From the NCBI GenBank assembly GCA_963830365.1, contig CAWHMU010000021.1:16339-80338 (forward strand): DNA of 64,000 bases, in the 5' to 3' direction. The notes below the pieces were generated by a model that did no database searches, had not been told where the DNA came from, and worked only from the letters and a program-made list of their open reading frames with translations. Below, piece after piece: positions 14,571-62,912 of this stretch (within the stretch, counting starts at the first letter, position 1; every line of letters begins with the position of its first letter). The stretch comes from an uncultured Chlamydiae bacterium. GTDB taxonomy: Bacteria > Chlamydiota > Chlamydiia > Chlamydiales > Parachlamydiaceae. The position numbers and the translations under genes are program-made.

Positions 14571-15347
14571 TCACATGCCGAGACCGCGCCTGGCCGGCAG
14601 CTTGTCTGCCAGCTGCTGGCTGGGGGATTCTTTAAGATGGATGCCAGAAAGTTTCAAACGCAGGCTTTCGGTGATGAGGAACAGCAGTTTCTCGGCCGCG
14701 ATCGCATAAGACAGCCCTTCGGGCGGATGCACATTGGAAATGCAGTTGCGCTCGGCATCGCTGTGGCCGGCTTTGGGGTGGTATGTAAGATAGATGCCTA
14801 GGCTGTTGACTGAGGTTAGGCCTGGCCGTTCACCAACCAGGATCACGCTGAGTTTAGCGCCGAGAGTTTCGCCGATATCATCGCTCAAAGCTACCCTTCC
14901 ATAAGGTGCCAGGACGATAGTATATTTAAAATCCGGCAATATGGCCTGCAGCATAGGTTTTAGAACCTTCCAAAACGGGATAGCGTGGGCGTTGATGGCC
15001 GGCACGGAAAGTCCGTCCGTGATGATGAATACAATGTCTGTCTGATGCCGCTGACTGTATTTGCTTACTTTAGCGCGGCTGTCGCTAGTTAGGATCCGGC
15101 CAAGGGTGGGGAATTTCAGATATTGCTCTCTGATGCTGACGGCGGTTTTTACATGGATCGGCTTTTCTCCCGCCGCTATCAATTTTTCTTCAAACTGCGC
15201 CACCTCCCAGACTTCTTGTACGGCATCGCGCGCCAAAGCGTGCGCGAGCTGAAAGTCCAACCAGTCGTTGGTGGATAGAGAATGTCCGCTACGCTGCAGT
15301 CCGATGCGCGCTTGTGTATGTTCTTTAAGCTGACCCCAAAGGTTCAT
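14571..15347 (-). CDS. eutC: Ethanolamine ammonia-lyase small subunit
   Basis: ARIGLQRSG, FQLAHALARDAV, GERPGL, DAERNCISN. Confidence 0.95.
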   Translation of the reverse strand: MNLWGQLKEHTQARIGLQRSGHSLSTNDWLDFQLAHALARDAVQEVWEVAQFEEKLIAAGEKPIHVKTAVSIREQYLKFPTLGRILTSDSRAKVSKYSQRHQTDIVFIITDGLSVPAINAHAIPFWKVLKPMLQAILPDFKYTIVLAPYGRVALSDDIGETLGAKLSVILVGERPGLTSVNSLGIYLTYHPKAGHSDAERNCISNVHPPEGLSYAIAAEKLLFLITESLRLKLSGIHLKESPSQQLADKLPARRGLGM

Positions 15348-15350
15348 CAG

Positions 15351-28478: not shown

Positions 28479-28978
28479 TGGGTCATCACACAAATGATTG
28501 GTTGACAGAGATGACTACTCAAGAACTTATGACGTGAAAGGACTTTGAGGGTTGGGGTCAGGCTTGTGATTTGTGATTTTAAAATCCTAAATACATTAGA
28601 AAGCCCGACTCATTTCAAATCGCAAATCGCAAGCCTGACCTCAATCCGTTCAGCCAAAGCCTACATTATGAGTTTTTGAGGTTCATCCGGTTTTATAGGA
28701 CCCACCTAGAAAAGGATGCATAGAAATGGGGAAATGTAGGTAACACATCGGAGCAAAAATAACAGGATATTAGGATGGACAGGATGAAAGATTTAAACTT
28801 TAGTTTGTCAACTTTGCGATTTACGTAGGTCTTGGGTGATCATCCTATTTTTCATATCCTGACCATCGTAATATCCTGTTATTTTTGCTTGCGCTTTTCT
28901 CTTTACAAGTTCTGCAAAACCGGAAGAACCGTTTTTGAGATGTTAGCTCTGTCAACCAATCGTTTGTGTGATGACCCA
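28479..28978. repeat. Nested palindromic element cluster A
   Basis: 32-bp outer inverted repeat 28479-28510/28947-28978 enclosing IR pairs 28518/28680, 28552/28644 and 28752/28889. Confidence 0.85.
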
Positions 28979-29631: not shown

Positions 29632-30474
29632 CTAAAGGCTCTGCCTAGAAAAATACACCTCCGCAGGCGTTTTATAACCCAGTCCTTGGTGTGGCCTGCT
29701 CTCGTTGTAAAACTTAAAATAACTCTTAAGTCCATTACGGACATCTTTTAAGCTTTCATACCCTTTTGGATAAATCTCTTCATACTTCACGCTTCTCCAG
29801 AGCCTTTCAATAAACACATTATCAAGGGCTCTGCCTTTTCCATCCATACTGATTCTGACTCCGCCTGCTTCTAATCTCTCTACAAACCGACAGCAGGTGA
29901 ATTGAACTCCTTGGTCTGTGTTGAATATCTCAGGACTAGCTCGAGAAAGCCCTCTTTCTAATGCATTAATGCAAAATTCCGCATCCAGCAGATTCGAAAG
30001 TTCCCATTCGATCACATACCTGCTAAACCAATCGATGATCGCAAAAAGGTATCCAAATCCTTTCAACAAAGGAACGTAGGTGATATCTGCAGCCCATGCC
30101 AAATCGGGTTTATCTACTACAATCCCTCTTAGTAGGTAAGGAAACTTTTTATGCTCCTTATTTGCCGCACTCAGATTGGGCTTGGGATAGATTGCTTCTA
30201 AACCCATTGTCTGCATCGCCGTTCGAATCCTTTTTCCTCCTACAAAAAAACCTTGAGCTCTCATTGCTATCGTCATCCGTCTTCTTCCATAGAAGGGAGT
30301 TTGAAGATATTGTTCATCAATAGCCCGCATGAGTGCCAAATCTTCCTCGTTGGGCTGTTTGGCCTTATAATACAACCCAGATCGTGACATTCCAAGCAAA
30401 TGACACTGACTTGATAGCGACAACTTCTTATGATCTGGCTCTATTAGAAGTCGTCGAGAATTTAAGTCAAACAT
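29632..30474 (-). CDS. IS3 transposase OrfB (DDE integrase core)
   Basis: WAADITY, NTDQGVQF, DNVFIERLWRSVKYE; A8G slippery site at about 30480-30488. Confidence 0.95.
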   Translation of the reverse strand: MFDLNSRRLLIEPDHKKLSLSSQCHLLGMSRSGLYYKAKQPNEEDLALMRAIDEQYLQTPFYGRRRMTIAMRAQGFFVGGKRIRTAMQTMGLEAIYPKPNLSAANKEHKKFPYLLRGIVVDKPDLAWAADITYVPLLKGFGYLFAIIDWFSRYVIEWELSNLLDAEFCINALERGLSRASPEIFNTDQGVQFTCCRFVERLEAGGVRISMDGKGRALDNVFIERLWRSVKYEEIYPKGYESLKDVRNGLKSYFKFYNESRPHQGLGYKTPAEVYFSRQSL

Positions 30475-31002: not shown

Positions 31003-31541
31003 GGTTCATCGCACAATCGCGTACCTCCCCATATGTAAACTAATGGAGGATGTTAAATAAATCATACATAATGGCAAATTGCGCATTCGATCCTGTGAAG
31101 GAAGGATTTGAGTTGGCACTGTCATACAAGAGATAGGGCACAAGCCATGAGAACATTTTTACAGCCTCGATAGAGGCGAAAGCATGTAGCCACATGCGTC
31201 AGCGTGTGGTAATCGCATGTTTAGAAACAAAGCCGTGAATACGGCGGCAGCAATGACTAAAGGATAGTATATACTATAATAATTGCATCTAATTCAGCTT
31301 CCATCGAAATTGCTGTCGCCGTATTCACGGCTCTCTTTATACTACATCTTATTCCATAGGTTGACACCTATGGCTACATGCTTCCGCCTCTATCGAGGCT
31401 AACTAGACCTTCTGTGCTAGAATGCCGATTTGTTTCAAAGAGAACATTACAAATAGATCATCACTTCTCATATTTCAACCATCAATTACTAGGGCTTTTT
31501 GACGAATCATCATGGGCAGGTACTCATTTGTGCGATGAACC
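31003..31541. repeat. Nested palindromic element cluster B (REP-like doublet inside an IR pair)
   Basis: Outer ggttcatcgcacaa../..tttgtgcgatgaacc; inner ~92-bp unit 31163-31254 inverted at 31309-31400. Confidence 0.85.
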
Positions 31542-32215
31542 ATAAAAAACTCTTTTAATTGTGTTTTAAAAATGGTAGTTTTATATAAACGCCAATAAAA
31601 TAACAATCAGTACTTTTCACGATGCTGTGGCAACTTAAAATGGCAGGTTGACGAAATGCGAAAAACCCGGCTCAGAAAAATCCGTTGCCTTGTTTTCGAT
31701 TTCGGCATGGTTTCTCGATTCTTGAAATAAGACATATACCGTGATCTAGTGAGAATTTGACATATTGGACTGCGCGAAAGCTCGATTTCCCTTCTATTAG
31801 CCTCTGTGTCTCTGTGCCGGTGCGATCGGCGTCTCGGTGAAGTTTTTCTTAACACATTGATTAATAACATTATACCACCAGCACAAGCAGCTTTCACCAC
31901 AGAGTACAGAAAATGTCTGAAAAACCTCATGAGTACTCATCTGAGGGAGTTGCATGTGTGAAAAAGTGCGCATATACACGCCTACGAATTGGGTGGATTT
32001 TAGAAAAAGAGAAAGTGCTGACGGAGTATGGACCCCATGCCCCATGTCAATCATAGGTATGGTTAAAATGGGGCATCCCAAGGATTTTTAAAAGCTTTTC
32101 CGGCCTAGCCAAGCGTCCACCTCTCCACTAACTGTGCGTTAGAGAGGGTGGAATTGCTACGATGCAAAAAAGCTGCTAACTGCTAACGCTGGCTATATCG
32201 TCTAAGGCTTTTAGC

Positions 32216-33568: not shown

Positions 33569-33738
33569 TATACCACACGCGGCTAGGTTTGGCGATTTTC
33601 GGCAACGCCAAACCTAGCCGCGCGTAGTATAGTTATAACGCCCCCTTGGGGCTTGTTTTCTTAATATAATGACACCCATGGTTTGCGCCGTTGGCGTTAC
33701 ACCATGGGCGATACATATGGCCGCTCGCTAAGGAGCTT
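33569..33738. repeat. Long hairpin plus REP-like unit
   Basis: tataccacacgcggctaggtttggcg...cgccaaacctagccgcgcgtagtata; then gcccc-cttggggc and cccatggt...accatggg. Confidence 0.75.
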
Positions 33739-34117: not shown

Positions 34118-34313
34118 AAATCGCCCTCTCAAAAAAGTAGTCTTTCTACACCACGCGAGGTATAGATTTCATATATCATTAGATAATTAATTATTTATCA
34201 CGCATACATTTTAAATGCAAACTCGAGATAAAGTAAAGCATAAGCCATACCCCATTACCCAGATTCAGTAATTTTTCTTTGACAAAGTGCCTATTTCCAT
34301 CTACGTTGGGGTT

Positions 34314-35813
34314 ATGAGTACGCCAAAAGCGCCCCATATCATCTTGCTTGATGGCAAGAGTTTAACTCTTGCACGCGCCGAAGCCATCGCCAACGGCGCC
34401 CCGCTACGCCTCGCCTCCACCGTTAAACAACGCATCGATAATTCTCATAAACTTGTCAAGCATTTGGCCAAGCAAGACACCCCTATCTATGGCCTAAATA
34501 CAGGTTTTGGCTCGTTTGCCGACAAACACATCAGCCATCACCAACTGCAGAAATTGCAAATCAATATCCTACGCAGCCATGCCGCCGGCTATGGGCCGCC
34601 GCTCTCTATTGGCGAGACACGCCTGATGATGGCGCTACGCCTCAACGTCTTTTTGCAAGGATATGCCGGCGTGAGTTATCATCTATGCCAGGCCTTATGG
34701 GAGCTCATCGAAGCCGAGATCTATCCCATTATCCCCGAATATGGCTCCGTCGGCGCAAGCGGCGACCTCATCCCGCTGGCCCATTTAGCCCTACCCCTCA
34801 TCGGCGAGGGAATGGTACGCTATAAAAACCAGACGATGGCGGCTGAAAAGGCTTTAAAAGCTGCAGGCCTACAGCCCATCAGCCTTGAAGAAAAAGAAGG
34901 CTTAAGCCTTATCAACGGCACCCAAGCCATGCTGGCCATGGGCAGTTTGGCACTTGCCAACGCCCGCCGACTTTACCTATACGCCGATAAGATCGCGGCT
35001 TTAAGCTATGAAGCCTTAAGCGCCTCCGCCGACAGTCTAAACCCGCAGATCCATGCACTTAGGCGGCAGACTGGCCAAATAGATTCCGCCACGCAGATAT
35101 TACAGGAACTCCAGGGCTCTCCCTTGCTAAGGGCCACACATCATCCGCGTGTGCAAGACCCCTATTCCCTGCGCTGCGCCCCGCAAATTCATGGCGCCAG
35201 CCGCGATGCCATCGAGTATGCCGTCGCCATCATCGATAAGGAACTCAATGCCGTCACCGATAATCCCTTGGTATTCTATGAAATGGAAAAAGTCCTTAGC
35301 GGCGGCAACTTCCATGGACAGCCCCTGGCCATGGCCTTTGATATCGCCTCGATCGCCATATCTGAGCTGGGAAATGTCTCTGACAGGCGCCTGGAGGTTT
35401 TGCTGAATCCCCAGATGAGCGGACTGCCCGGCTTCCTGGCCGCCCATGCTGGCATTGATTCCGGCTATATGGCCTTTCAATATCTCACCGCAGGCCTCGT
35501 CAATGAGACAAAAATCCTGGCCAACCCCGCCGTGACGGATTCCATTCCCGGCAATGGCGGCATCGAGGATTTCGTCTCCATGGGCATGACCTCGGCGCGC
35601 AAATTAAAAACCATCGTCGCGCATGCAAAAACGATACTTGCCATCGAATTGATGGCAGCAGCCCAGGCTATTGACATGCAGCATATCAAACATTTAGGCA
35701 AAGGCACCGCCAAGACTTTTGCAACCATCCGCGCCCACGTGCCGCCACTCAAGCACGACCGCATCTTGGCCGATGATATCCCAAAAGCCTTGGCTGCACT
35801 TGACACACTATAA
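34314..35813 (+). CDS. hutH: Histidine ammonia-lyase
   Basis: YGLNTGFG, GSVGASGDL (MIO), VQDPYSLRCAPQ, GGNFHGQP. Confidence 0.95.
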   Translation: MSTPKAPHIILLDGKSLTLARAEAIANGAPLRLASTVKQRIDNSHKLVKHLAKQDTPIYGLNTGFGSFADKHISHHQLQKLQINILRSHAAGYGPPLSIGETRLMMALRLNVFLQGYAGVSYHLCQALWELIEAEIYPIIPEYGSVGASGDLIPLAHLALPLIGEGMVRYKNQTMAAEKALKAAGLQPISLEEKEGLSLINGTQAMLAMGSLALANARRLYLYADKIAALSYEALSASADSLNPQIHALRRQTGQIDSATQILQELQGSPLLRATHHPRVQDPYSLRCAPQIHGASRDAIEYAVAIIDKELNAVTDNPLVFYEMEKVLSGGNFHGQPLAMAFDIASIAISELGNVSDRRLEVLLNPQMSGLPGFLAAHAGIDSGYMAFQYLTAGLVNETKILANPAVTDSIPGNGGIEDFVSMGMTSARKLKTIVAHAKTILAIELMAAAQAIDMQHIKHLGKGTAKTFATIRAHVPPLKHDRILADDIPKALAALDTL

Positions 35814-35826
35814 GGGAGCGTGATCC

Positions 35827-37515
35827 ATGCCTCTAAAGCCAAACTCGCAGCTTAAAGATTTCCTGGCCGCCTATGCCACCCACCCCCACTATAAAGCTCC
35901 TAGGGGCACCACGCTGCACGCCCTGTCCTGGCAAAGCGAAGCCCCCTTGCGCATGCTGCTCAACAATCTAGACAGCGAAGTGGCCGAAGACCCCGCCAAC
36001 CTCATCGTCTATGGCGGCACCGGCCAGGCCGCCCGCAATGTCGATGCCTTGCAAAAAATCATCAACGCCCTGCTAAATTTGCAGGACGACCAGAGCCTAC
36101 TCATCCAATCCGGCAAAGCCGTCGCCATCCTACCCACGCACACTGAAGCGCCGCGGGTGCTCATCGCCAACAGCAACCTTGTCCCTCACTGGGCTACCTG
36201 GGAACATTTTAATACCTTAAAAGAGAAGGGGCTGATCATGTTCGGCCAGATGACGGCCGGCAGCTGGATCTATATCGGCACTCAAGGGATATTGCAAGGC
36301 ACCTATGAGACGTTTGCCGCTCTGGCGCGCAAGCATTTTGGCGGCACACTGAAAGGTAAATTGATCGTTTCAGGCGGCTTGGGAGGCATGGGCGGCGCCC
36401 AGCCACTGGCCGTGACGCTCAACGGAGGCATCTTTTTGGGCGTCGATATCGACCCCTGGCGCATCGATAAAAGGCTAAAGACAAAATACCTTGATAAAAT
36501 GACCCATAGCTATGAAAAAGCCCTAAAATGGATCCGGGAAGCTCAAGCAAAAAACAAACCTCTATCCATCGGCCTGGTCGGCGATATAGGCACCATCTTG
36601 CAGCGGCTATTAGATGACAAGATCACGCCTGATGCCGCTACCGACCAAACTTCCGCCCACGATCCCTTGAACGGCTACGTACCTGCCAACATGACGCTTG
36701 CCGGCGCCAAAGAGTTGCGCGCCGCCGATCCTGTGCTATACCGTCAAAAAAGCCTCACGAGCATGGCAGTGCAGGTGCACGCTTTACTGGAGATGAAAAA
36801 AAGAGGCAGCGTCGTCTTTGAATATGGCAACAACCTGCGCGAGTTTGCCAGGATTGGCGGCGAAAGCCGCGCCTTTGAAATCCCCGGCTTTGTCGCCGAA
36901 TACATCCGACCGTTGTTTTGCCAAGGCAAAGGGCCCTTCCGCTGGGTGGCCCTATCCGGCGATCCCGAAGACATCTACCGCACCGACGAAGCGCTCATCA
37001 CAGCCTTTCCAGAAAATGTCCACCTCCACCAGTGGCTGCGCAAAGCTAAAGAGAATGTCTCTTTCCAAGGACTGCCGGCACGCATCTGCTGGCTTGGTAT
37101 CAATGAGCGCGCTACCGCCGGCCTGCTTTTCAACGATCTAGTCAGACAAGGCATCGTCAAAGCGCCAATCGTCATCGGGCGCGACCACCTTGACGCAGGC
37201 TCTGTGGCCTCGCCATATCGGGAGACCGAAGGCATGCTCGACGGCTCCGATGCCGTCTCCGACTGGCCGCTACTCAACCTGCTAAGCAACTGTGCCGGCG
37301 GCGCCACCTGGGTATCGTTCCACCATGGCGGCGGCGTCGGCATCGGCTACTCCCAGCATGCCGGCATGGTCATCGTTGCCGACGGCACAGAGCGCGCCGC
37401 GCGCTGCCTGAAGCGCGTGCTCTTCAACGACCCAGCCACCGGCATCGTGCGGCATGCCGATGCCGGCTACGAACTGGCCGTGAAGATGGCTATGGAAAAC
37501 GACTTGCTATTATGA
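35827..37515 (+). CDS. hutU: Urocanate hydratase
   Basis: [45 protein letters not shown]. Confidence 0.97.
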
Positions 37516-37553
37516 TGTAAGTGCTATACCTGAAGCTGATAAAAACACTTATT

Positions 37554-37643
37554 CTTTCTCTGTGTCTCTGCGCCTCTGTGGTAAATTTGTTTTATTAATT
37601 CTATAATCAAGCTCACCACAGAGGCACAGAGACACAGAGAAAG
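37554..37643. repeat. cacagag-type palindromic element inside the hut operon
   Basis: ctttctctgtgtctctgcgcctctgtggt / accacagaggcacagagacacagagaaag; relatives near 3697, 18752, 22992, 31801 and 49216. Confidence 0.85.
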
Positions 37644-37702
37644 TAAAAATTTGTCTTTTATGTTGCTCATTTTTGACAAACCATGGTTTATACGGGTTGC
37701 CA

Positions 37703-38941
37703 ATGGGATTTAACACCGACTCTCACGAATATGTCATCGGTCCATTTGCACAGGTTGTGACCATGCACGGGCTGCCCGCAAGCGGTCCCATTGATGACAG
37801 CCTGCTGACCATCAAAGCCGATGCCGCCATCCATGTGCGGGGCGATCTCATCGTCGATATCCTCCCCTTCAATGCGCCTGAAATCCGCCATCTCAAACAT
37901 CTGGAGATGGCAACGCCATGCGTGGCTATGCCGGGCTTTATCGATACGCATACCCACCTGTGCTTTGCCGGCTCGCGTGCCGCAGACTATACCCGGCGGC
38001 TAAGCGGCATCAGCTACCGACAAATAGCCATGCAGGGCGGAGGCATTCTATCCACCGTTATCCAGACCCAAGCCGCCAGCCAGCCAGCCCTCGTCGATGG
38101 ACTGATAAAGCGTTTAAAAATAGCCTGCCAGCAAGGCGTCACTACCTGTGAGGTCAAAAGTGGCTACGGCTTAAATACCGGTGATGAAATCAAAATGCTG
38201 CAGGCCATCAACCAAGCCAGCCAACAGCAAGCCGTTTCCCTCATTCCCACTTGCCTCGCCGCCCATGCCCTGCCAAAGGAATTTCCTTCCGCCACATCCT
38301 ATCTCGACCATCTCGGCCATGAGTTGCTGCCGAAACTCATCCAGCAAAAGCTTTGCCGGCGCATCGACATCTTCGTCGACAGCTGCGCCTTCACGATAGC
38401 TGAAGCACGCCCTTTCCTGGCACGCGCCAAGCAAATGGACTTTGCCATTATCGTCCATGCCGACCAGTTCGCGCGCGGCGGCGCCAAGCTGGCAGCCGAC
38501 ATCGGCGCCCTTTCCGCCGACCACCTGGAAGTTTCCACGCCTGCCGATGCCGCCCTCATGAAAGCTTCAGGCGTCATCCCCATCGTGCTACCAGCCTCAA
38601 GCCTCGGCCTCGGCCTGCCCTTTGCACCGGCACGCATGCTGCTTGATGCCGGACTGCCGTTAGTCATCGCCTCGGATTGGAATCCGGGCTCAGCCCCTTC
38701 AGGCCGGCTGCTCATGGCTGCGGCCTTTTTGGGAGCTGCCCAGCACCTCACCATGGCAGAGACTTTTGCCGCCTTGACAGTGAGGGCAGCCAAAGCCCTT
38801 GAACTTAACGATCGCGGTATGCTACAACCCGGCAAGCGCGCCGACATCATCGTTTTCCCTGTCAGCGACATGCGTGAAATCTTATACCAGCAAGGTGCAC
38901 TGTTGCCATGCACTACCCTTATCGGAGGAAAACCTCAATGA
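37703..38941 (+). CDS. hutI: Imidazolonepropionase
   Basis: PGFIDTHTH, EVKSGYGL, HADQF, SADHLE, SDWNPGS; start uncertain. Confidence 0.95.
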   Translation: MGFNTDSHEYVIGPFAQVVTMHGLPASGPIDDSLLTIKADAAIHVRGDLIVDILPFNAPEIRHLKHLEMATPCVAMPGFIDTHTHLCFAGSRAADYTRRLSGISYRQIAMQGGGILSTVIQTQAASQPALVDGLIKRLKIACQQGVTTCEVKSGYGLNTGDEIKMLQAINQASQQQAVSLIPTCLAAHALPKEFPSATSYLDHLGHELLPKLIQQKLCRRIDIFVDSCAFTIAEARPFLARAKQMDFAIIVHADQFARGGAKLAADIGALSADHLEVSTPADAALMKASGVIPIVLPASSLGLGLPFAPARMLLDAGLPLVIASDWNPGSAPSGRLLMAAAFLGAAQHLTMAETFAALTVRAAKALELNDRGMLQPGKRADIIVFPVSDMREILYQQGALLPCTTLIGGKPQ

Positions 38942-39930
38942 CTATGCACTTAGCACAGGCTACACTCAAAAACTATCAGGCCACACCAACCAGTCTCTGG
39001 CAAGGACGCAGCGATGGACAGGGCGCCGAACGCTACCACGAATGCATCAAATGTCTTGATCTAAGCCAGGAAGCTCCACCCCTTGCTATCAAAACGACTT
39101 TCGCCTTGCTGGGCTTTGCCTGCGATGAAGGTGTGAGGCGCAATCAGGGCCGCGTCGGCGCAGCCTATGGTCCGGCAGCATTGCGCGCATCTTTGGCACC
39201 TTTTCCAATGGCCGGCGATATCGTGCTATATGATGCCGGCGATATCGTCTGTCATAATGGAGATCTTGAAGGCGCTCAAAAAGCTTTGGGTGAAGTGGTG
39301 GCTGGCCTGCTACATAAAAAAATCTGCCCGATCGTATTGGGCGGCGGACATGAATTGGCTTGGGGTACCTATCTGGGACAGGCAGCGGCCTGCGAGCCTG
39401 TCGATTGTGCTTTTGTCAACTGCGACGCCCATCTGGACCTGCGCCCCCAGCTGGCGGGAGATAGGGGCAGTTCCGGCACATCCTTTGCGCAAATAGCCTC
39501 CCACCGTCTGGCCAACAATATGAAATTCGATTACACCTGTCTGGGCTTGCAAGCCTGCGGCAATACGCCAAGCCTTATAGCCAAAGCCAAAGACAACCAT
39601 GCCCACCTGCTCTTTGCCGACGAATTCCATTTGGGAGGCACCGAAGCCAGCGTAGAAGTCATTGATGAGATCATCATCCGCAGCGATATCATTTCGCTGT
39701 CGCTATGCCTGGATGTTTTTGCCGCCCCCTTCGCCCCAGGCGTCAGCGCTCCACAGCCCCTAGGACTGCTCCCCTGGCATCTGATTCCGGCCTTGCGCCG
39801 CCTGGCCATTTCCAAAAAGGTGGTGACTTTCGGTATCGCCGAGCTTTGTCCGCCGCATGACGACAGGCATGTCACGGCCAGGCTTGCCGCCAGCCTCATC
39901 GCGGACTTTCTCGCCCATGTCAACAGCTAG
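38938..39930 (+). CDS. hutG: Formimidoylglutamase (arginase family)
   Basis: DEGVRRNQGRVGA, GGGHE, DAHLDLR, APGVSAP; ATGA overlap with hutI. Confidence 0.93.
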   Translation: MTMHLAQATLKNYQATPTSLWQGRSDGQGAERYHECIKCLDLSQEAPPLAIKTTFALLGFACDEGVRRNQGRVGAAYGPAALRASLAPFPMAGDIVLYDAGDIVCHNGDLEGAQKALGEVVAGLLHKKICPIVLGGGHELAWGTYLGQAAACEPVDCAFVNCDAHLDLRPQLAGDRGSSGTSFAQIASHRLANNMKFDYTCLGLQACGNTPSLIAKAKDNHAHLLFADEFHLGGTEASVEVIDEIIIRSDIISLSLCLDVFAAPFAPGVSAPQPLGLLPWHLIPALRRLAISKKVVTFGIAELCPPHDDRHVTARLAASLIADFLAHVNS

Positions 39931-40005: not shown

Positions 40006-40193
40006 CTTTGTCGTTACCTACAACTATCAATCGAATATTTTAAGTCATTTTTTTTCCCATTACCATCTTCGTAGGGAAAATATTCGATCAACAAAGTAAA
40101 AAGAGAGGAACTCCTACGGAGTTAAACAAGAATATGCGTTTTCCCGTAGAAATGACTTAAAATATTCGCTTGATAGCTGTGGGTAACGACAAG
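40006..40193. mobile_element. MITE-like element with ~43-bp TIRs and an apparent 8-bp TSD
   Basis: ttgtcgttacctacaactatcaatcgaatattttaagtcattt / aaatgacttaaaatattcgcttgatagctgtgggtaacgacaa; cttgcgat on both flanks. Confidence 0.75.
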
Positions 40194-43954: not shown

Positions 43955-45441
43955 GCAAAAATAGGATAGATAACGCGGGCGATAAGAAAAAACATCAACG
44001 TCGATAGCACGTCATTGAAAGCCGTTACAATCGGTCCCGAGGCCACTGCCGGATCTATGCCGAAACGGGCAAAAAAGAACGGCGAAAATGTCCCCAGCCC
44101 CGTGGCCATCAAACAAGCTCCCAGCAAACCGACACTGACTGTCGTACCTACGGCCAGCGGATCGCCGCCGGAATTGTGGATTTGAAAATGATTGAGGAGA
44201 TAGACGACAAGGCCGCAAAAAACGCCAAAGACACACCCAATAAGCAGGCCGATGCCAAGCTCCTGACTCACCGCATTCATGCGCGAGCCGCTGGAAAGTC
44301 CGCCGGTTGACATCCCGCGCACGAGGATAGTACTGCACTGCAGGCCCACATTTCCGGACATGCCGGCGATCAACGGCACAAAGAACGGCACATAGACAAA
44401 CCATAAGCGGTCTTTGAAATGCGCCATGGCAGTGGCTGTCACCAATCCGGCACAAAGGGTCACTAGCAGCCATGGGGCGCGCAAAATAAAACGCTCTAGG
44501 ATGGGGGCCTGTTCGCTCACATCCTCGGCGGTACCGGCGATATTGGCGATCGTTTCATCGGCGATATCTTCCATGGCCTCTACGACATCTTCATAGGTGA
44601 TGACGCCGATTAGATGGTCTTCCTCATCAACCACCGGCAAGGCGGGGATTTTATATCTTTCCACTAGATCGACGACCTCATCACGCGAATCATCGGCGGT
44701 CACCTTGTGCAAAACAGGGCGCATAACCTGTCGCAGGGGTAGATATGCAGGATTTACCATCAGGTTGCGTCCAGGCACAAAACCGGCCAAGGCGCCATCG
44801 TCGGTGAGTACAAAAATGCAGCGGGTCAATTCAATACCCGGATTATCGCGGATGCAGGCCGTCACTTCACCGATGGTGGCATGCATATGGAAAGCAAAAA
44901 ATTCGTTGGTCATCAGGCGGCCGGCGCTATGCCTGTCATGTTGCTGCAAATCGCGGATGCGGGCAGCTTTTTTCGGATCGAGCTGCTCTAAAACGCGCTT
45001 CAAGCGCCGATCGGACATATCGTCCAGGATCCAGACGGCTTCATCCGGCGGCATCTTTTCAATCAGGCGGTTGATCTCTTTATCATCGATTTGACGGAAG
45101 ATGGCACTGCGGGTATTGCTACCGGTATTGATCATGAAAATTATCTTAGCATTCAAATCGGGCAGGTTGTCATAGACGACAACGCGGGCGCTGGGCGGCA
45201 GCCGTGTAACAGCATGGGCAAGGTCGATGGGATCGTGTTCGCTTGCGATTTTGGCAACATCATGCAGCAGAACTTGCGATGTCTGCTTATGGAAAGCGCT
45301 TTCAAGTTTTTCATTAAGTACATCATCGAGGTGGCTAATCTTTGAATCCATAAGATTGCCCGTCGACGTGCTGTAATCATCCAACTCTTGATGTCTGCCC
45401 TCAAAATCAGCTGTGTGCTCACCATGGGATTTACTTTCCAT
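43951..45441 (-). CDS. mgtE: Magnesium transporter MgtE
   Basis: N-domain, CBS pair (SAGRLMT, LPVVD), RAPWL, GNVGLQ, DPAVASGP...ND; ATG 45441 after GGAGGG. Confidence 0.96.
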   Translation of the reverse strand: MESKSHGEHTADFEGRHQELDDYSTSTGNLMDSKISHLDDVLNEKLESAFHKQTSQVLLHDVAKIASEHDPIDLAHAVTRLPPSARVVVYDNLPDLNAKIIFMINTGSNTRSAIFRQIDDKEINRLIEKMPPDEAVWILDDMSDRRLKRVLEQLDPKKAARIRDLQQHDRHSAGRLMTNEFFAFHMHATIGEVTACIRDNPGIELTRCIFVLTDDGALAGFVPGRNLMVNPAYLPLRQVMRPVLHKVTADDSRDEVVDLVERYKIPALPVVDEEDHLIGVITYEDVVEAMEDIADETIANIAGTAEDVSEQAPILERFILRAPWLLVTLCAGLVTATAMAHFKDRLWFVYVPFFVPLIAGMSGNVGLQCSTILVRGMSTGGLSSGSRMNAVSQELGIGLLIGCVFGVFCGLVVYLLNHFQIHNSGGDPLAVGTTVSVGLLGACLMATGLGTFSPFFFARFGIDPAVASGPIVTAFNDVLSTLMFFLIARVIYPIFA

Positions 45442-45457
45442 CTTCCCTCCTGATACA

Positions 45458-46339
45458 GGCACTCAATATACTGGCACTCAATATACTGGCACTCAATATA
45501 CTGGCACTCAATATACTGGCACTCAATATACTGGCACTCAATATACTGGCACTCAATATACTGGCACTCAATATACTGGCACTCAATATACTGGCACTCA
45601 ATATACTGGCACTCAATATACTGGCACTCAATATACTGGCACTCAATATACTGGCACTCAATATACTGGCACTCAATATACTGGCACTCAATATACTGGC
45701 ACTCAATATACTGGCACTCAATATACTGGCACTCAATATACTGGCACTCAATATACTGGCACTCAATATACTGGCACTCAATATACTGGCACTCAATATA
45801 CTGGCACTCAATATACTGGCACTCAATATACTGGCACTCAATATACTGGCACTTAATATACTGGTATTCAATATACTGGTATTCAATATACTGGCATTCA
45901 ATATACTGGCACTCAATATACTGGCACTCAATATACTGGCACTCAATATACTGGCACTCAATATACTGGCACTCAATATACTGGCACTCAATATACTGGC
46001 ACTCAATATACTGGCACTCAATATACTGGCACTCAATATACTGGCACTCAATATACTGGCACTCAATATACTGGCACTCAATATACTGGCACTCAATATA
46101 CTGGCACTCAATATACTGGCACTCAATATACTGGCACTCAATATACTGGCACTCAATATACTGGCACTCAATATACTGGCACTCAATATACTGGCACTCA
46201 ATATACTGGCACTCAATATACTGGCACTCAATATACTGGCACTCAATATACTGGCACTCAATATACTGGCACTCAATATACTGGCACTCAATATACTGGC
46301 ACTCAATATACTGGCACTCAATATACTGGCACTCAATAT
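45458..46339. repeat. 15-bp tandem array (ctggcactcaatata), about 59 copies
   Basis: Directly visible; four variant units at about 45851-45900. Confidence 0.97.
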
Positions 46340-46666
46340 TGTTTGCCATGACGGCATTGTTCACAGATAAGTTGGTTTTGACAAACTATGATGCAACCTA
46401 TATTGCGACAAGATATTCTTTTTTACGAGTTTCTCTGGGGAGAGTGTACTTCTAAAAAAACAATTCCCACAAGCAAAAAGCGCCATGGTGATTTGGCATG
46501 GTGATTTGGATTGCAGTCAGGCTGCCCCTTTAATCCAAGCCCTATCTGGCTTGCCCCCCTTGCCATATACAGCGGCTACCGTCATTATTTTAACTTTAAT
46601 ATTGTAATTTTACAAAGTTACTGCTATGATTACTTCTTTTTAAACCTAAAAAATAACAAAAATCCT

Positions 46667-48499
46667 ATGTATTCACCAAAAAAAATTCGTAATATCGCCA
46701 TTATTGCCCACATTGACCACGGCAAAACAACTATGCTTGACAGCATGCTCAAGCAATCCCATGTCTTTAGAGACAACGAAGCTGTCCCCGAACGTGCTAT
46801 GGATTCCTACGATCAAGAAAAAGAACGCGGCATCACCATCTTCGCCAAACACACCTCGGTACGTTTCATTGATGACGCTGGTGACGATTACAAAATCAAT
46901 ATCATCGATACACCGGGTCACGCAGACTTCTCAGGCGAAGTGGAGCGCATCCTCGGCATGGTCAACTCAGTATTGCTGCTGGTCGATGCCCAGGAAGGCC
47001 CTATGCCGCAAACGCGCTTTGTGCTGTCCAAATCCCTGAAAATGGGCCTGCGCCCTATCGTCGTGCTGAACAAAATCGACCGCCCACATGCTTCTCCGGA
47101 TGCCGTGCTGGATGCCACCTTCGATCTATTTAACGAACTCGGCGCAACCGATGCCCAGCTCGATTTCAGCTATTGCTATGCCTCCGGGCTTTCCGGCTTT
47201 GCCACGCACCAAGTCGACGATAAGCGCGTTGACATGCGTCCGCTTTTCGAACTCATCGTCTCGGCTGTAGATGCACCGCAGGGCAGCCTGGAAGAACCGT
47301 TCCTCATGCAAGCTGCCACGATCTCTTATGATGATTATGTGGGCAGACAAGCCTGCGGCAGGATTCTTGAAGGCTCCGTCAAAAAAGGCCAAATCGTCAT
47401 CCATTGTGATGCCGAAGGCAAGCAAACCAGATGCCCCATCACGCGCGTCGAAGGCTATTTGGGTTTGCATAAAATCGAAATGGATGAAGCTGGTGTAGGC
47501 GATATCGTCTCCCTTTCCGGCATTCCTGAAGTCATGATCGGCGATACGCTATGCGATCCAAAGAAAATCGTACGCCTGCCTCCTATCAAGCTGGATGAGC
47601 CCACCGTTTCTGTCGATATCACCGTCAACACCAGCCCCTTTGTCGGACAAAGCGGCAAACATGTCACCATGAACAAAATCCGCGATCGCCTAGAAAAGGA
47701 AAAGCGTGCCAATATCTCGTTGCGTATCTCGGAAAGCTCCGGCGATCAAGATAAAATCACCGTGGCCGGCCGCGGCGAATTGCACCTGTCGGTGTTGATT
47801 GAAGCCATGCGTCGCGAAGGTTATGAATTTAGCGTGTCTAAACCGCGTGTCATCATCAAAGAAGTCGACGGCGTCAAACTCGAACCAATAGAACGCGTGC
47901 ATATTGAAGTGCCTGAAGAATTTACCGGCAATATCATTGAAGAGCTATCACGTCGCCGTGGCGAAATGCAGCATTTGGATACCAACGAGCATAAAATAAC
48001 CAGCATGGAATTCGTCATGCCAACGCGCGGCCTGATGGGCTATCGCAATGACTTCTTGACGATCACGCGTGGCTTGGGCATTCTTACTTCGATCTTCGAA
48101 GAATTTGCCCCATGGAGAGGCTCTATCCCCGGACGTACCCGCGGTGTGCTTATTTCGGCCGGACCCGGCAAGACCAATGGCTACGCCTGCTTCAACCTGC
48201 AGGATCGTGGCGTGCTCTTCACCGGTCCTGGCGATGACGTCTATGAAGGCATGATCGTCGGCGCCAATAGCCGCGAAAACGATTTGATCGTCAATGTCAC
48301 CAAAGGCAAGCAGCTCACCAACGTCCGCGCTTCAGGCAGTGATGAAAACATCATCCTCATTCCTGCGCGCAGATTTACACTTGAGCAAGCCATCGATTAC
48401 ATTCAAGATGACGAACTCATTGAAGTGACACCGGATGCCATCCGCATGCGCAAACGTCACCTCACCGAACAAGATCGCAAACGCAAAGATAGTAAATAG
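46667..48499 (+). CDS. typA: Translational GTPase TypA/BipA
   Basis: [41 protein letters not shown]. Confidence 0.97.
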
Positions 48500-48850: not shown

Positions 48851-48909
48851 TAAGAAAGAATTAATAATCTCAAGTAGCCGCTAGCAAGGGGCTTTTCGAC
48901 TATTGATTT

Positions 48910-49076
48910 AACCTAGAAACGGCAGTTGAGCATGTAAAAAGGTGTTCAAGATTTTTGGCTGCAACGGTTTGCGAAAGACAAGGACATCACCAAATCGGTG
49001 AGGCCCTATTTTTCGCAAACCGCTGCAGCCAAATAGATTGGGCAGATTTTCCAGGGGCAACTGCCGTTTCTAGGTT
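48910..49076. repeat. Palindromic element with aacctagaaacggcagttg termini
   Basis: Ends aacctagaaacggcagttg / caactgccgtttctaggtt; short copy at 29266-29310 and half copy at 62674-62757. Confidence 0.85.
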
Positions 49077-49557
49077 TAATTTCTTCCATCTAAACATCCA
49101 TCTTAAGTTAGCCATGAATACAGCGGAAGCATGTAACCACAGGTGTCAACCTGTGGTAAACTCATCATTAATATGGCTCATCGCGCAAATGAGTACCCAT
49201 GAGGTTTTCCCGACCTTCTCTGTGACTCTGTGCCTCTGTGGTGAAATCTGCTTGCTGGATGTATAATATTATCAATCAGAGTGTTACGGAAAGCTTCACC
49301 ACCGAGACACAGAGGCACAGAGAAGAAAAATGGAGATTGCTCTTAGGGTTTTGTTAATTAGGTACTCATTTGCGTGATGAACCATTAATATCAAGTCGTG
49401 GCTAAGGCGGCAGAGCGCTCGAAGACCCTGCCGCCTTAGCCATGGCTTAATCTCTTTGGCTGTGATTACCACAGATTGACACCTGTGGTTACATGCTTCC
49501 GCCGTATTCACGGCTAATTCAATATTTTGGCCTGGATGTTAAGATGAATGAAATTAA
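49076..49557. repeat. Nested palindromic element cluster C (four levels)
   Basis: IR pairs 49076/49557, 49108/49517, 49173/49385, 49216/49324, plus hairpin 49393-49448. Confidence 0.88.
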
Positions 49558-49705
49558 GGTGATAGCTGGGTTGTCCACCAGCAGGACTGTACATGTCAAA
49601 ACGCAATATTGCTTGATTCGCTGATAATCAAGATTGAATAACAGTCAAATATTTCTCATCAAAACGCTCTTATAATAATTGATTCGTTAAGATGGCCTCT
49701 GCAGC

Positions 49706-50027: not shown

Positions 50028-52118
50028 TCAGCTATCGCTTTCGTCTGCCTCTTGCTCATCTTCCTCTTTGCTGAGCAGGCGGGAGATCAGCATGCGGAAG
50101 GAGGTCTGATGGCACAGGCTTTCCAACCATTCGTCATGCATCACATCTTCCACAGGCGGTAGCGCATCGGACTGCTCCGCCCTTTCCATATAATGCATGG
50201 CGGCGGCTGGATTTTCGGTGAGGGCATAAAGGCAGGCGAGGTTATAAAAGGCGTGAACATTACCCAAAGACACCGCTTGCTGAAGCTTGCGTTCGGCTTT
50301 TTCAAATAGCAGATGGGCTTGGGCCCTATGGGCTGGATCATTGGTCAGCACACCAAGGTTCAGCAACGTAAGGCCATAATCATTCCATGCCATTTCATCT
50401 TCTGGGTCTTTTTGGACGAGCTCATGAAAATGCTCGATGGCTTTATGAAAGCTGTCGATATCTGAGTTCAGCTCCCCTAAATGGAACAGGGCCAGCGCCA
50501 GGTTATAACGGGCATGGTGGTATTCGGGATCAAGCTGCAGGATATGGGCAAGCACCTGCACAGCTTTTTCATAATAGACGGGCTCCTCGTGGAAATCGCC
50601 AAGGAAATCCATGGCGCATCCATAGTTGTAAAGCCATTCAATTTCGACATCCTCGCCATGCGCATCAAGGCGCCGGCTGATGGCCAGTTCAAATTTTTCA
50701 GCGGCGGCTTCGACATGTATCTGCTCGTTAGTCATTTCGCCAAGCTTCATCAAAGCCACACCCCAGTCACTCAAGAACTGCGGCACAAGCGTGCAGCCGG
50801 TGGCTGCCACGCGATTGAAAAAATCAACCGATTTCTCGATCGTGGCAGGACAGCCTGTCATCTCACCGATGGAATAGTACGCCAGGGCCATGCCATGCAG
50901 CAATAAGGGATGGGAACTCTTCAGCGTCAAACCGAATTGGAAGTTCTCTATGGCCTTATAATAATATTCTTCGGCCGCAAAATAGCGTCCGAACTCACTC
51001 AAGCATACACCATAGATATACCAGGCGTCGGCCTCAGCAGGCAAGAGGTCTAGCGCCAGCTTGATCTTGGTTTTGGCTTCATGTAAAAGCTCTAAATTCT
51101 CCGTATATGCTCCCATCAGCATCTGGGCTTCGCCCCACCGCAAAAACACCTGTGGGTGCTCCGGCTCGAGGGAATTGGCCTTGGCAAATTTATCCATAGC
51201 CGCTTGAATGCGGTCTAAATCGCGCGCCGCCTTGCCGGCATTAAGCAGCAGTTCGGCCCAGCGCAGCCAAACAATTCCATCCTGTGCATTTATTTCGTGA
51301 GCCTGTTCAAAAGCCTCATCAGCTTCATGGAAATATTCTGAAATGCCTGTAAGGTCGTATAAGCGCTGATAGGTGCAGGCTATATTAAGCCAGCCTTCAA
51401 ACTGGCCTGGCACAAGCGATGTGAACTTTTTGTAATGCTCAAGGGCTTCGATTAACAACTCTTTGCGCCCTGCTACAAGACAAGCCAGATCTATCAAAAT
51501 ATTGCCAAAATCATTATGGAATTCGCCGCTGTCACATCCGGCTTTTTCAGCCAGGCGGAATTTCTCAAGCGAGCGGAAGAAGTCTACAGCCTCGCCGGAA
51601 TGCTTGCCGATGTGATACCAGCTCACACCCCAATGCCAATACAGACTTTCGGTATTGCGCTCTCCATCATGCTGCGCCAGATGCGCAGCTTCATGAAACT
51701 TCTCATCGGCCTGGTACAGATAGGCCGCATCGTCGTAAAACATGCCCATCCTGACCAGGATATTGCCCCAGGAATGCCAGGCAGGCACAAAAGAAGGATC
51801 CAGATGTGTAGCCTTTTCTAAAGCCTTGCTGGCAGCCAATAGACAGCGGATATTCTGCCCTTGCGCAGCATAGACCAAGGCCTGCCTGAAGAAGACAAGA
51901 GGGCTATGCGAAGCCACTTTGGAGGCGATATCGAAGCTTTCCAGCACTTTGCTGTCGCCATTTTTCAGTTGATGCTCCCCTTGCTTGACAAAGAGAATCC
52001 CCAGCAGTTCGCGTTCGTTATGCGTCATACCGTCCCACAACACAGGCTCGGCGTAGGGAACGAGTTGTTCGAAAGCATTGTTGGCTAATATTGTTTTAAA
52101 TTTCTGTTGGATAGACAT
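50028..52118 (-). CDS. Tetratricopeptide repeat protein
   Basis: Many W/Y-x-x-x-G helical repeats; C-terminal YNLACLYAL. Confidence 0.9.
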   Translation of the reverse strand: MSIQQKFKTILANNAFEQLVPYAEPVLWDGMTHNERELLGILFVKQGEHQLKNGDSKVLESFDIASKVASHSPLVFFRQALVYAAQGQNIRCLLAASKALEKATHLDPSFVPAWHSWGNILVRMGMFYDDAAYLYQADEKFHEAAHLAQHDGERNTESLYWHWGVSWYHIGKHSGEAVDFFRSLEKFRLAEKAGCDSGEFHNDFGNILIDLACLVAGRKELLIEALEHYKKFTSLVPGQFEGWLNIACTYQRLYDLTGISEYFHEADEAFEQAHEINAQDGIVWLRWAELLLNAGKAARDLDRIQAAMDKFAKANSLEPEHPQVFLRWGEAQMLMGAYTENLELLHEAKTKIKLALDLLPAEADAWYIYGVCLSEFGRYFAAEEYYYKAIENFQFGLTLKSSHPLLLHGMALAYYSIGEMTGCPATIEKSVDFFNRVAATGCTLVPQFLSDWGVALMKLGEMTNEQIHVEAAAEKFELAISRRLDAHGEDVEIEWLYNYGCAMDFLGDFHEEPVYYEKAVQVLAHILQLDPEYHHARYNLALALFHLGELNSDIDSFHKAIEHFHELVQKDPEDEMAWNDYGLTLLNLGVLTNDPAHRAQAHLLFEKAERKLQQAVSLGNVHAFYNLACLYALTENPAAAMHYMERAEQSDALPPVEDVMHDEWLESLCHQTSFRMLISRLLSKEEDEQEADESDS

Positions 52119-53953: not shown

Positions 53954-55759
53954 CAGGGCTTTTTCATTAAAGAAATTTAACACCAAAAATTCCACTCACA
54001 GCCAGCTCTAAGGCGATTTCGCCATTTTTATTCTCATATATCTAGCCTAATATATAAAAAAACAATTGACTTTATTTATCACGTATATTACAAGGTGTTT
54101 TAAATAAATATCTGGTCTAATATGTCGATGAATCTGGTAGATCTACATCTAAACTGGGGTGCATTTACCTCTAAGGGCAAGAAGTATGTCTCCTATAGCC
54201 TTGCTAGATCCATTTGGACAAACGGCTCATGCCGGAAAGAAATCGTACTTAAATTGGGTAAACTCACTAATGAGGAAGTCGTATTCTGGCGTCAGACGCT
54301 GAAAGACGCAAAAAAACGGCGCAAGGCAATTTCTCAGACAGCCCCTAATCCTTCAGGTGACTCCAGTCCTTCACTTGTCGAAGCTAATAAGTTGACAGCG
54401 AATTCTCAGGATCCCGATACTGGAGATCTTCAAATTGCTACGGGGGATTTTGAGGGCGAAAACATGTCAGTAAGAAAGAAATTCATCTACGACGAACACG
54501 ATCAAAATGTCGATATTCACTCTTACGAGGATGCTGTAAAACATGCTTTTGCGGACGTTCAGGATCCGCGCGTCGCAGATAATCTGCAATATCCATTCTA
54601 TGGACTTCTGCTAACGATTCTGGCGGGTATTCTTGCAGGCGCAAAGTCCATCAGTGGTATTTACGAGTATGGAAAGGAAAAAGCTGCCATGTTATGCCCT
54701 TTACTTAATCTCGAACGACACCCTTCCTATACCGCCTTTTGGTGGATCCTGACGCGAACAAACCCTGAAATCTTGAACCAGGCATTCATTAAATGGATTA
54801 AGTTGGTGGCTGACACCTTGGGCGGCACTGAGAAAAAAATCTCTATCGACGGGAAAACTCTGAGAGGTGCCAAAAAGGATCTTGTTCATTACGTGAGCGG
54901 ATACGAGTCTGGAAGTGGGCTTCTGCTTGGTCAAGTGAAAACAGAGGAAAAATCCAATGAGATCACGGCAATTCCAGAGTTGCTAAAGGTAATCGATGTC
55001 AAGGATGCGACGGTCACAATTGATGCGATGGGGTGCCAAAAAGGCATTGTAAATGACATCAGGGAGCGCGGAGGGCATTATGTGATTGCCTTAAAAGGAA
55101 ACCAAGACACTCTACATGCTGAGGCCCAGAATTTTTTTGATCAAGCCAGAGCAGCTGATTATAAGGGGGCTAAGTGTAAAAAGTATGAAGCGACCAATGA
55201 AGGACACGGCAGGCTAGAGAAGCGAGAGGTGACAATCACCAAAAATCTCAATTGGCTGGATTGTCGAAGTGATTGGCGGGATCTTAAGATGCTGATAGAA
55301 GTGAAATCCACTAGGACGATCAAGGGTAAATCTACAGAAGAACTTCGCTACTACATTTCCAGCAAGGATATGACTGCGAAGATGGCGAACAGCACTGTTC
55401 GCTCACACTGGGGGATTGAGAATAATCTTCATTGGGTTTTAGATGTGTTATTCGGTGATGATATCTCCCGGGCCAATACTGGCCATGCAGCGGAGAATCT
55501 AGGTCTCTTTAGACGGATGGCCTATTGCATTTTAAAACAGGAAACAGTGCAAGGACGCGGTTTGGCATCAAAACAACGCAAGGCAATGTGGAATGATCAC
55601 TATGTGCTTGAACTGTTAAACAAGTTTATCAAGGAAGTGAGCAGCGGGAGCGAGGTTTACCAGCTCGAGTAGACGACTGCCGGCCTAGAGCATCAAGCGC
55701 AGCTTGTACCCGCAGGGGCGGCATGAAGAGTGTAAAGTATTTTTAATGAAAAAGCCCTG
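53954..55759 (+). mobile_element. ISAs1 family insertion sequence, 1806 bp, 10-bp TSD
   Basis: TIR cagggctttttcattaaa at both ends; cacccgatcc at 53944-53953 and 55760-55769. Confidence 0.96.
54122..55672 (+). CDS. ISAs1 family transposase with N-terminal extension
   Basis: DPR, IDGKTLRG, KSNEITAIPELL, IDAMGCQK, LKGNQ, GHGRLE, HWGIENNLHWVLD. Confidence 0.95.
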   Translation: MSMNLVDLHLNWGAFTSKGKKYVSYSLARSIWTNGSCRKEIVLKLGKLTNEEVVFWRQTLKDAKKRRKAISQTAPNPSGDSSPSLVEANKLTANSQDPDTGDLQIATGDFEGENMSVRKKFIYDEHDQNVDIHSYEDAVKHAFADVQDPRVADNLQYPFYGLLLTILAGILAGAKSISGIYEYGKEKAAMLCPLLNLERHPSYTAFWWILTRTNPEILNQAFIKWIKLVADTLGGTEKKISIDGKTLRGAKKDLVHYVSGYESGSGLLLGQVKTEEKSNEITAIPELLKVIDVKDATVTIDAMGCQKGIVNDIRERGGHYVIALKGNQDTLHAEAQNFFDQARAADYKGAKCKKYEATNEGHGRLEKREVTITKNLNWLDCRSDWRDLKMLIEVKSTRTIKGKSTEELRYYISSKDMTAKMANSTVRSHWGIENNLHWVLDVLFGDDISRANTGHAAENLGLFRRMAYCILKQETVQGRGLASKQRKAMWNDHYVLELLNKFIKEVSSGSEVYQLE

Positions 55760-57818: not shown

Positions 57819-57989
57819 TTGGACCAACTTATAAGTTTTAATTTTAAACAAGATATATTACAAATTCTTTTACATGTAAACAATTACGTTATATTATGGC
57901 GGGCAGGGGTTGATAGAGTCAAAATGGATCATGTTTCACCCTATACCATGATCTAGTGAGAATTTGACATATAATTAAGGGAAAATGCT

Positions 57990-62520: not shown

Positions 62521-62912
62521 AAGCACTCCATTTAGTTTAATTATACAGCATATTTTTAATTTTAACAATAGCGGCTTCTGCAAAACTGAATAAAAAGTGG
62601 ATTGGTTTAGTTTATTACACAGAGAAATTATCGAAGAATGATTTATACCAGGACCTAGTGAGAATCTGACATATTGGTGAGGTGCTATTTCCGCAAACGG
62701 TGGCAGCAAAAAAGATTGGGCAGATCTTCCAAGGGAAACTGCCATTTCTAGGCTTAATCGGGAATACCATTTTTTCCTTTTCAAAAAAAGAAAACATTTA
62801 TCCTGGAAATATGAATTTTTTTTATATATTATTTTATTTTCCAAGTAACAACCGTTACTTTTCAGATATCCGCGGTAAACCGCTTGGGCGCTACAAAATA
62901 AGGAGTATCCCG

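Follow-up and report, generated by a model that had tools for sequence, protein, structure and literature searches.

The repeats described here lie in a window of 64,000 nucleotides, the whole stretch of DNA that was analysed (contig C21, positions 16339-80338). The assembly is of the metagenome type and rich in repeats (2.73 Mb, 48.6% GC, 48 contigs, 82% complete). By the list of open reading frames, the nested locus is intergenic and lies between two convergent genes. The features of the locus, in window coordinates, are:

46511-48499, plus strand: typA/bipA GTPase gene (TIGR01394 above cut-off), left neighbour, convergent with the TPR gene
48898-48911, plus strand: left A arm, outer tip, with the first 5-bp duplication copy of F at its end (48907-48911)
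48912-49074, no strand: F, a MITE, likely IS1634-type, with inner pair G (48953-48976/49011-49034); second 5-bp duplication copy at 49075-49079
49076-49100, plus strand: A left arm, the outer extension of A-B-E, complementary to 49533-49557
49108-49159, plus strand: B left arm, composed of a small hairpin, a spacer, a GTAG-type tetranucleotide (GTAA here) and a second hairpin
49167-49174, plus strand: left copy of the 8-bp target duplication, ATTAATAT
49175-49383, no strand: C[D], a 209-bp ISL3-family MITE with ends 49175-49197 and 49361-49383
49215-49325, no strand: D doublet, outward-facing, fixed cargo of C, of the repeat type found around GxxExxY genes
49384-49391, plus strand: right copy of the 8-bp target duplication
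49393-49448, no strand: E doublet, the inner short arms of A-B-E, of the same family as K (31231-31332)
49466-49517, minus strand: B right arm
49533-49567, minus strand: A right arm with a decayed outer tip
50028-52118, minus strand: TPR-repeat protein gene, right neighbour of the nested locus

The four concentric inverted pairs reported in the initial annotation are present, in the order A, B, C and D from the outside in. The arms are complementary at 22/25 positions for A, 49/52 for B, 21/23 for C and, read from the sequence, 28/31 for D (49215-49245/49295-49325). A fifth pair, E (49393-49413/49428-49448, 19/21 by the same reading), lies beside C and within B, and the nested structure reaches further left than previously annotated, to about 48898. 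Each arm has between 11 and 197 matches genome-wide, as compared to none in the reversed genome. The four pairs had been taken as four independent families. They belong instead to C, with D as its cargo, and to one element made up of A, B and E; F is a further unit.

The single-stranded DNA fold of the stretch is strong (-138 kcal/mol, z = -17), and none of 100 shuffled sequences folded as well. The earlier suggestion was of large hairpins or cruciforms. Cruciform extrusion needs a short central loop, and with 49 nt in the innermost spacer, duplex DNA is unlikely to form a single large cruciform here. Nesting of symmetric elements gives rise to the large hairpin as a side effect, and such a hairpin can form in single-stranded DNA or RNA.

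The ISL3-family MITE C and element F

The left end of C is identical (23/23) to the end of an intact ISL3 element in the same genome, and the right end matches at 23/25 positions. This ISL3 element is present in five copies of 1327 bp that are at least 99.9% identical, have the end of C in common and encode a transposase of 401 aa (NF033550 above cut-off), the frame being shorter in one of the five. A second ISL3 element, in three copies, has a related end. Across the genome, 8-bp duplications flank 99 elements that have ISL3-type ends (82 of the duplications are perfect; 0 in a shifted control), at 94 distinct junctions. The duplications are AT-rich, with a mean of 6.3 A/T in 8 positions, as are those of the intact ISL3 copies. 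C[D] occurs in 37 near-full-length copies, including the 49-kb one, in different flanks, the nearest being 97-99% identical. In its ends, its duplication and its short, transposase-free form at many unrelated sites, C has the properties of an ISL3 MITE, as MITEs are defined in PMC3119063 and PMC4133298. The MITE interiors match the intact ISL3s at the ends only. Derivation of C[D] from the resident ISL3 by internal deletion was rejected, the match being limited to the ends, and IS1595, considered as another parent, had no match in the genome.

When C and one copy of its duplication were removed by script, the remaining shell aligned gap-free to contigs C23 (247 nt, 86%) and C27 (207 nt, 87%). 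C was therefore inserted into B at 49 kb. The earlier view of the pairs as non-autonomous mobile elements is right, and they differ in origin. The A-B-E paralogues are 75-87% identical to the 49-kb shell, compared with 97-99% for the nearest copies of C, and the C insertion is therefore the young layer. C is likely mobilised in trans by the intact ISL3 transposase, judging from the ends they have in common and the length of the duplication. The initial annotation had looked to a RAYT as the mobiliser; the main mover appears instead to be a DDE transposase of the ISL3 family. It was right that no cognate mobiliser lies in the window, where the transposases are of the IS3 and ISAs1 types. The 40 relatives searched are all of other genera, and none is close enough to offer an orthologous empty site. 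Among the sequencing runs listed for the genome there was none of RNA; in one DNA run, where its share is small, the C[D] unit was present in a different flank context, in reads that do not cross the 49-kb locus.

F splits the outer end of the left A arm, as seen by comparison with other A-arm copies, and the rejoined site was spanned by only one paralogue in a BLAST test. Direct repeats of at least 5 nt flank 7/10 F pairs (control 1). The IS1634 family has target duplications of 5-6 bp. In genome G240 an F-type end adjoins an IS1634 transposase fragment, a single fragment in one other genome, and the ends of this genome's own IS1634 differ from those of F. F is likely an IS1634-type MITE. IS1380 was also considered as its parent and rejected; it gave weak matches only, which were to IS1634 with other ends.

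The REP-like element A-B-E and an IS200-like TnpA

The B arm is likely the REP-like end of an IS200-like TnpA element. The genome has 56 B doublets, which are extragenic, dispersed and inverted, as REPINs are; the 49-kb copy lies between two genes. GTAG precedes the second hairpin in the family consensus, again as in REPINs, with GTAA at 49 kb. B has no target duplication: direct repeats were found for 4/58 pairs, compared with 1 in the control, and of these four, three consist of self-complementary 6-mers. A search of the genome_contigs set for an exact 28-nt B pattern gave no match. Contig C18 begins within a B array, of which about 20 units are present.

Two candidate families were dropped. 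E and K are a short form of the B arm, and A is not an independent MITE because it is fused to B/E arms: an A arm is followed by a B/E-type arm in 23/29 copies. Repeats at the A ends, apart from array junctions, are at control level (3/7, control 2).

In genome G046, the order around the sole Y1 TnpA match is B>K>gene<K<B, and the same B/K arms surround two more, broken, TnpA copies in G071 and G014. Of 80 homologous loci, 76 had sufficient flanking sequence for a survey. B arms were present on either side in 10/11 loci at 70% or more identity to this TnpA (a class that includes the query's own locus), 16/29 at 60-69%, 4/21 at 50-59% and 0/15 below 50%, with 0 in the control. The closest homologues of a TnpA from one same-family genome are mostly Chlamydiales and Parachlamydiaceae records; the assembly here, which has a sub-threshold match to the chlamydial OmcB family, probably comes from an environmental chlamydia. 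The B-linked TnpA scores with NF033573 (IS200/IS605) and not with NF047646, so that it lacks the class 2 RAYT character of a REPIN partner; the DHIH, WQ and Y---Q--HH motifs of the L061 protein are those of subclass 1.2. A close homologue is absent from this assembly, which is 82% complete (best match 46%). The genome's own Y1 genes were rejected as partners of B, as 0/9 matches are flanked by B arms.

A-B-E is one older REP-like element that works like a REPIN, with a partner that is not a RAYT. A-B-E also resembles a PATE, a core-deletion derivative of IS200/IS605 with near-terminal palindromes, in that the arms occur with a gene in G046 and without one here. However, PATEs have no terminal inverted repeats, and the arms of A-B-E are extensively complementary. 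The regularly spaced, alternating REPs and conserved linkers of BIMEs were not seen: the 49-kb locus is nested, and the arrays on C20, C46 and C18 are tandem.

Other Y1 genes were noted in passing. One, which encodes about 290 aa and is a fusion of two Y1 domains, is bracketed by tandem REP arms (L004/L005, G000 C45:169640-170425). Three long Y1 genes (L006, L007, L008) lie between H-type ends, and L006 scores as a RAYT with a DnaA-like tail. The H ends match the GGGGWSAS-type ends of TIRYT genes (TIRtrons) as given in PMC6006769 and PMC3733652.

ISL3-end composites and their cargo

Related composites lie elsewhere in the window:

31003-31541, no strand: 539-bp ISL3-end MITE, flanked by an 8-bp duplication, with a B'[K] doublet inside (31163-31400)
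28479-28978, no strand: MITE with ISL3 ends; its cargo is an H doublet (28549-28647) together with a second ISL3-type MITE
28680-28930, no strand: the second ISL3-type MITE, with an 8-bp duplication, carrying an I doublet (28752-28889)

At 31 kb the C ends enclose a B-type doublet, and the nesting order is reversed, as had been noted. The claim that the same families recur at both sites needs correcting for 28479-28978, where the C-type ends alone recur and the inner pairs are H, I and second ISL3-type ends rather than B or D. The 31-kb composite exists in at least 23 copies, of which 12 are bounded by duplications at 537-547 bp. It has a flank in common with 44 of the 56 B doublets and not with the other 12, and the ISL3 shells that contain B doublets are of at least three different kinds. 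A clean pre-insertion site was sought for all 56 and found for none. A single short 31-kb shell on C42 was considered as such a site and rejected; it reads as a deletion because one B hairpin is kept. With one 23-copy composite, shared flanks and no clean empty site, B within C is best read as a few old events multiplied by ISL3. H doublets are the cargo of a 235-bp ISL3 MITE, and no empty shell was found for the H-carrying or the I-carrying MITE.

D is fixed cargo of C. None of 40 left C shells is without D (36 have a gap of at least 100 nt and 4 have no partner), and the D spacer sits in a C shell in 33/35 cases, the remaining two being decayed versions. The initial annotation had reckoned with families that occur only as one fixed composite or have no further copies. 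Each composite is indeed fixed and has multiplied as a unit, but composites of many kinds are present, as are solo doublets. In C, the D doublet faces outward, as at the junctions of a tandem D array (C20:4613-6700), whereas the 57 solo D doublets face inward. None of these lies inside a duplication-bounded ISL3 element; they fall into about 32 flank contexts, and since flank clustering was loose, flank-context counts for D and B doublets are lower bounds. The array-junction orientation of D in C therefore favours capture over insertion, without proving it.

Both GxxExxY genes of the genome are bracketed by D-type and I-type repeats. Among 31 GxxExxY loci (the best match from each of 29 relatives and the two own genes), 20 are bracketed by inverted repeats, compared with 1 in the control; by pattern, six are of the D type and two of the I type. 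No published description of inverted repeats around GxxExxY genes was found among the titles and abstract openings of mostly open-access papers. Four same-family genomes (G047, G072, G019, G006) have 15-38 GxxExxY matches each; several of these have almost the same score, a sign that the gene itself may have spread recently. Units of B, D, A-B-E and I form long tandem arrays at C18:1-1370, C20:4613-6700, C46:60144-61270, L010 and L011, those of the I and D types next to GxxExxY genes.

Targeting, the order of nesting and known systems

The reversed order had been taken as a sign that the families target each other. It is no proof of such targeting; the 31-kb locus is one copied composite, and a clean B pre-insertion site is missing. 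Non-coding bases with at least three matches elsewhere make up 34%, and only 2 of the 94 ISL3-end junctions fall in long ORFs (coding masks were drawn from long ORFs, not from a gene caller). Junctions in repeats number 35/94, as compared to a null of 28.9% (p = 0.049), or 40/94 against 35.1% under an alternative (p = 0.08). Any excess is overstated, since promoter DNA, from which insertions are removed, counts towards the null. Six of the 94 fall directly in B doublets where 1.8 would be expected (p = 0.0099, or about 0.06 when corrected for six tests), at six different, scattered AT-rich sites, and no enrichment was seen in D, H, I or F doublets or in other ISL3 MITEs. Targeting by C is weak at best, and ISL3 may possibly have a mild preference for B doublets. 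Nesting would be common mainly because about one third of the non-coding DNA is already repeat and insertions in genes are removed; tolerance may thus be its main cause.

Strict targeting does occur in this genome, one-way and away from the 49-kb locus, for two other families. Family T is an IS with a 387-aa DDE_Tnp_1/DUF772 transposase, weakly IS1182-like (L110, G000 C1:1-1463). Together with its MITE derivatives of 179-592 bp (for example C34:4325-4916 and C42:24678-25269), it inserts into short-hairpin loops with 4-bp duplications. Its ends lie at short CCC/GCCTC stems in 38/44 cases, 11 of them at the B' hairpin; 105/113 intact B'-type hairpins are in non-coding repeats. The other is an IS110-like family, assigned from sequence rather than by a library scan (C42:68101-69914, C29:9206-11018 and about ten more in G000). 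It lies in one arm of another REP-like doublet (12/13 right ends, 7/10 left ends) that is itself the cargo of a 410-bp ISL3 MITE. The bridge-RNA target of IS110 is predictable.

Most probably, three non-autonomous units have piled up at the locus, an ISL3 MITE with palindrome cargo having come to lie inside an older REP-like element, likely placed there by ISL3 in trans. A B>K>tnpA<K<B element would first have lost the gene between its ends, leaving A-B-E, which spread. ISL3 ends may then have picked up two D units joined tail to tail, the probable source being a tandem array of GxxExxY-type repeats, and the C[D] composite would have been amplified as a unit. A young copy of C entered the AT-rich 8-mer between B and E, as the duplication and the empty paralogues show, and F, as its own duplication shows, entered the outer end of A. 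The reversed order at 31 kb is most likely the work of the same ISL3 enzyme, a B doublet having been captured and the composite then amplified. Capture and insertion by this one transposase would likely give both nesting orders. We infer capture because the empty shells are missing; old empties may have been lost, and the assembly is 82% complete.

The missing shells bear directly on whether B and D were instead put into small ISL3 MITEs by their own enzymes, TnpA and the GxxExxY protein, in both directions and without targeting, with amplification afterwards. Such insertion would also account for B doublets in several ISL3 shells, for MITE interiors that resemble the intact ISL3s at their ends alone, and for the solo D doublets and the B doublets outside the 31-kb flank. 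However, no empty shell was found for the C[D], H-carrying or I-carrying MITE, the short shell on C42 reads as a deletion, and D in C is oriented as an array junction and not as a solo unit. We regard this reading as rather unlikely. Active insertion by families that recognise each other's hairpins is improbable. In its favour, ISL3-end insertions are 3.3 times as frequent in B doublets as expected, and family T and IS110 show one-way targeting, but neither of these two families is at the 49-kb locus, the six C-into-B insertions do not share a site, the excess does not extend to D, H, I, F or other C elements, the purged promoter DNA in the null inflates it, and no reciprocal B-into-C event with a clean empty site was found.

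It is very improbable that the whole hairpin was selected by the host as a terminator, structured RNA or cruciform, despite its very stable predicted fold and its position between convergent genes. No Rfam match was found anywhere in the window, and promoter and terminator scans were at chance level, with no terminator-like site and no promoter excess. None of the nested arms was found around typA in 11 stretches from nine same-family genomes (the typA-TPR neighbourhood is kept in two of the nine), and the C insert is very recent. A metagenome-type assembly of 48 contigs with many repeats could also collapse or mis-join them, but mis-joins make neither a precise 8-bp duplication nor gap-free empty paralogues nor locus-specific substitutions in both B arms, and an artefact is extremely unlikely. 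A further idea, tentative and rather doubtful, is that doublets seed the birth of MITEs, fold-back joining two ISL3 ends and the doublet then hitch-hiking, and that D and I are spread by the GxxExxY PD-(D/E)XK nuclease, a kind of mobiliser so far undescribed. A strong internal inverted repeat is present in 20/24 MITE founder groups (about 8 expected), although these groups are not independent of one another and have cores in common; the inverted repeats around 20 of the 31 GxxExxY loci also speak for the idea.

Nested mobile elements are known from the literature; what is new is that the MITEs carry cargo and that repeats are linked to GxxExxY genes. In the sections of PMC3119063 that describe them, the mobile-element conglomerates of Haloquadratum walsbyi comprise 192 nesting events, including MITEs and SMR-A in PATEs. 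They are alike in having nested non-autonomous elements, MITEs in palindromic remnants derived from IS200/IS605 and some one-way targeting of palindromes. The PATEs there are without terminal inverted repeats and are mostly recipients, whereas the B arms are inverted and B is also MITE cargo. As with prokaryotic MITEs of IS families in general, the elements here are short and non-coding, with the terminal inverted repeats of an intact IS, a family-typical target duplication and an interior unrelated to the IS. They are unlike them in that nearly every amplified subfamily has a foreign REP-like doublet as fixed cargo. No published description of ISL3 MITEs carrying REP doublets was found among the titles and abstract openings of mostly open-access papers.

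The REPIN-RAYT system (PMC3116915) shares the inverted REP doublets, tandem arrays, GTAG-type foot and lack of target duplication, and REPIN clusters form by insertion of REPINs into or beside REPINs. It differs in that B is paired with an IS200-like TnpA that has the subclass 1.2 motif and is not a class 2 RAYT, and in that the nesting agent is a DDE transposase. Subclass 1.2 TnpA-Y1 proteins, which share the L061 motifs, have no REPs and generally no IS200 terminal structures in the part of PMC6006769 that treats them, whereas the clade here lies between inverted double-hairpin arms, which are conserved and make up a dispersed family. TIME-COMPs of the Tn3 family, as outlined in PMC4133298, are alike in that miniature elements mobilise neighbouring DNA and form new non-autonomous units. 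They have Tn3 ends and two whole TIMEs around the cargo, whereas single ISL3 ends surround a short palindromic cargo here. REPs as IS targets are published (PMC3733652 and PMC11208160); IS621 and other REP-targeting IS110 elements (PMC11208160) match the IS110 copies elsewhere in the genome but are no part of the 49-kb locus.

The locus is ordinary selfish DNA, largely explained by known parts. The genome may serve as a test bed, with repeats in about one third of its non-coding DNA, duplications that order the layers and the main mobiliser intact. REP-like repeats reach high copy number as cargo of DDE MITEs, and REP counts therefore need not reflect their own transposase. Subclass 1.2 TnpA and GxxExxY nucleases, both under-described, are tied to specific dispersed repeats, which provide defined substrates for cleavage assays.

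Several other features of the window were noted. An IS3 transposase OrfB (29632-30474) and an ISAs1 element with 30-bp ends (53954-55759) have no ends in common with the nested families. Further repeat families or inverted pairs lie at 31718-31768, 33569-33631, 40008-40192, 57925-57975 and 62627-62677. A tandem array of about 1 kb with a 15-bp unit and several open frames lies directly upstream of typA (45288-46360). Ethanolamine ammonia-lyase genes eutBC (14571-16754) and histidine utilisation genes (34287-39930) are notable for a likely intracellular bacterium, and two hut genes are separated by a D doublet (37549-37648).
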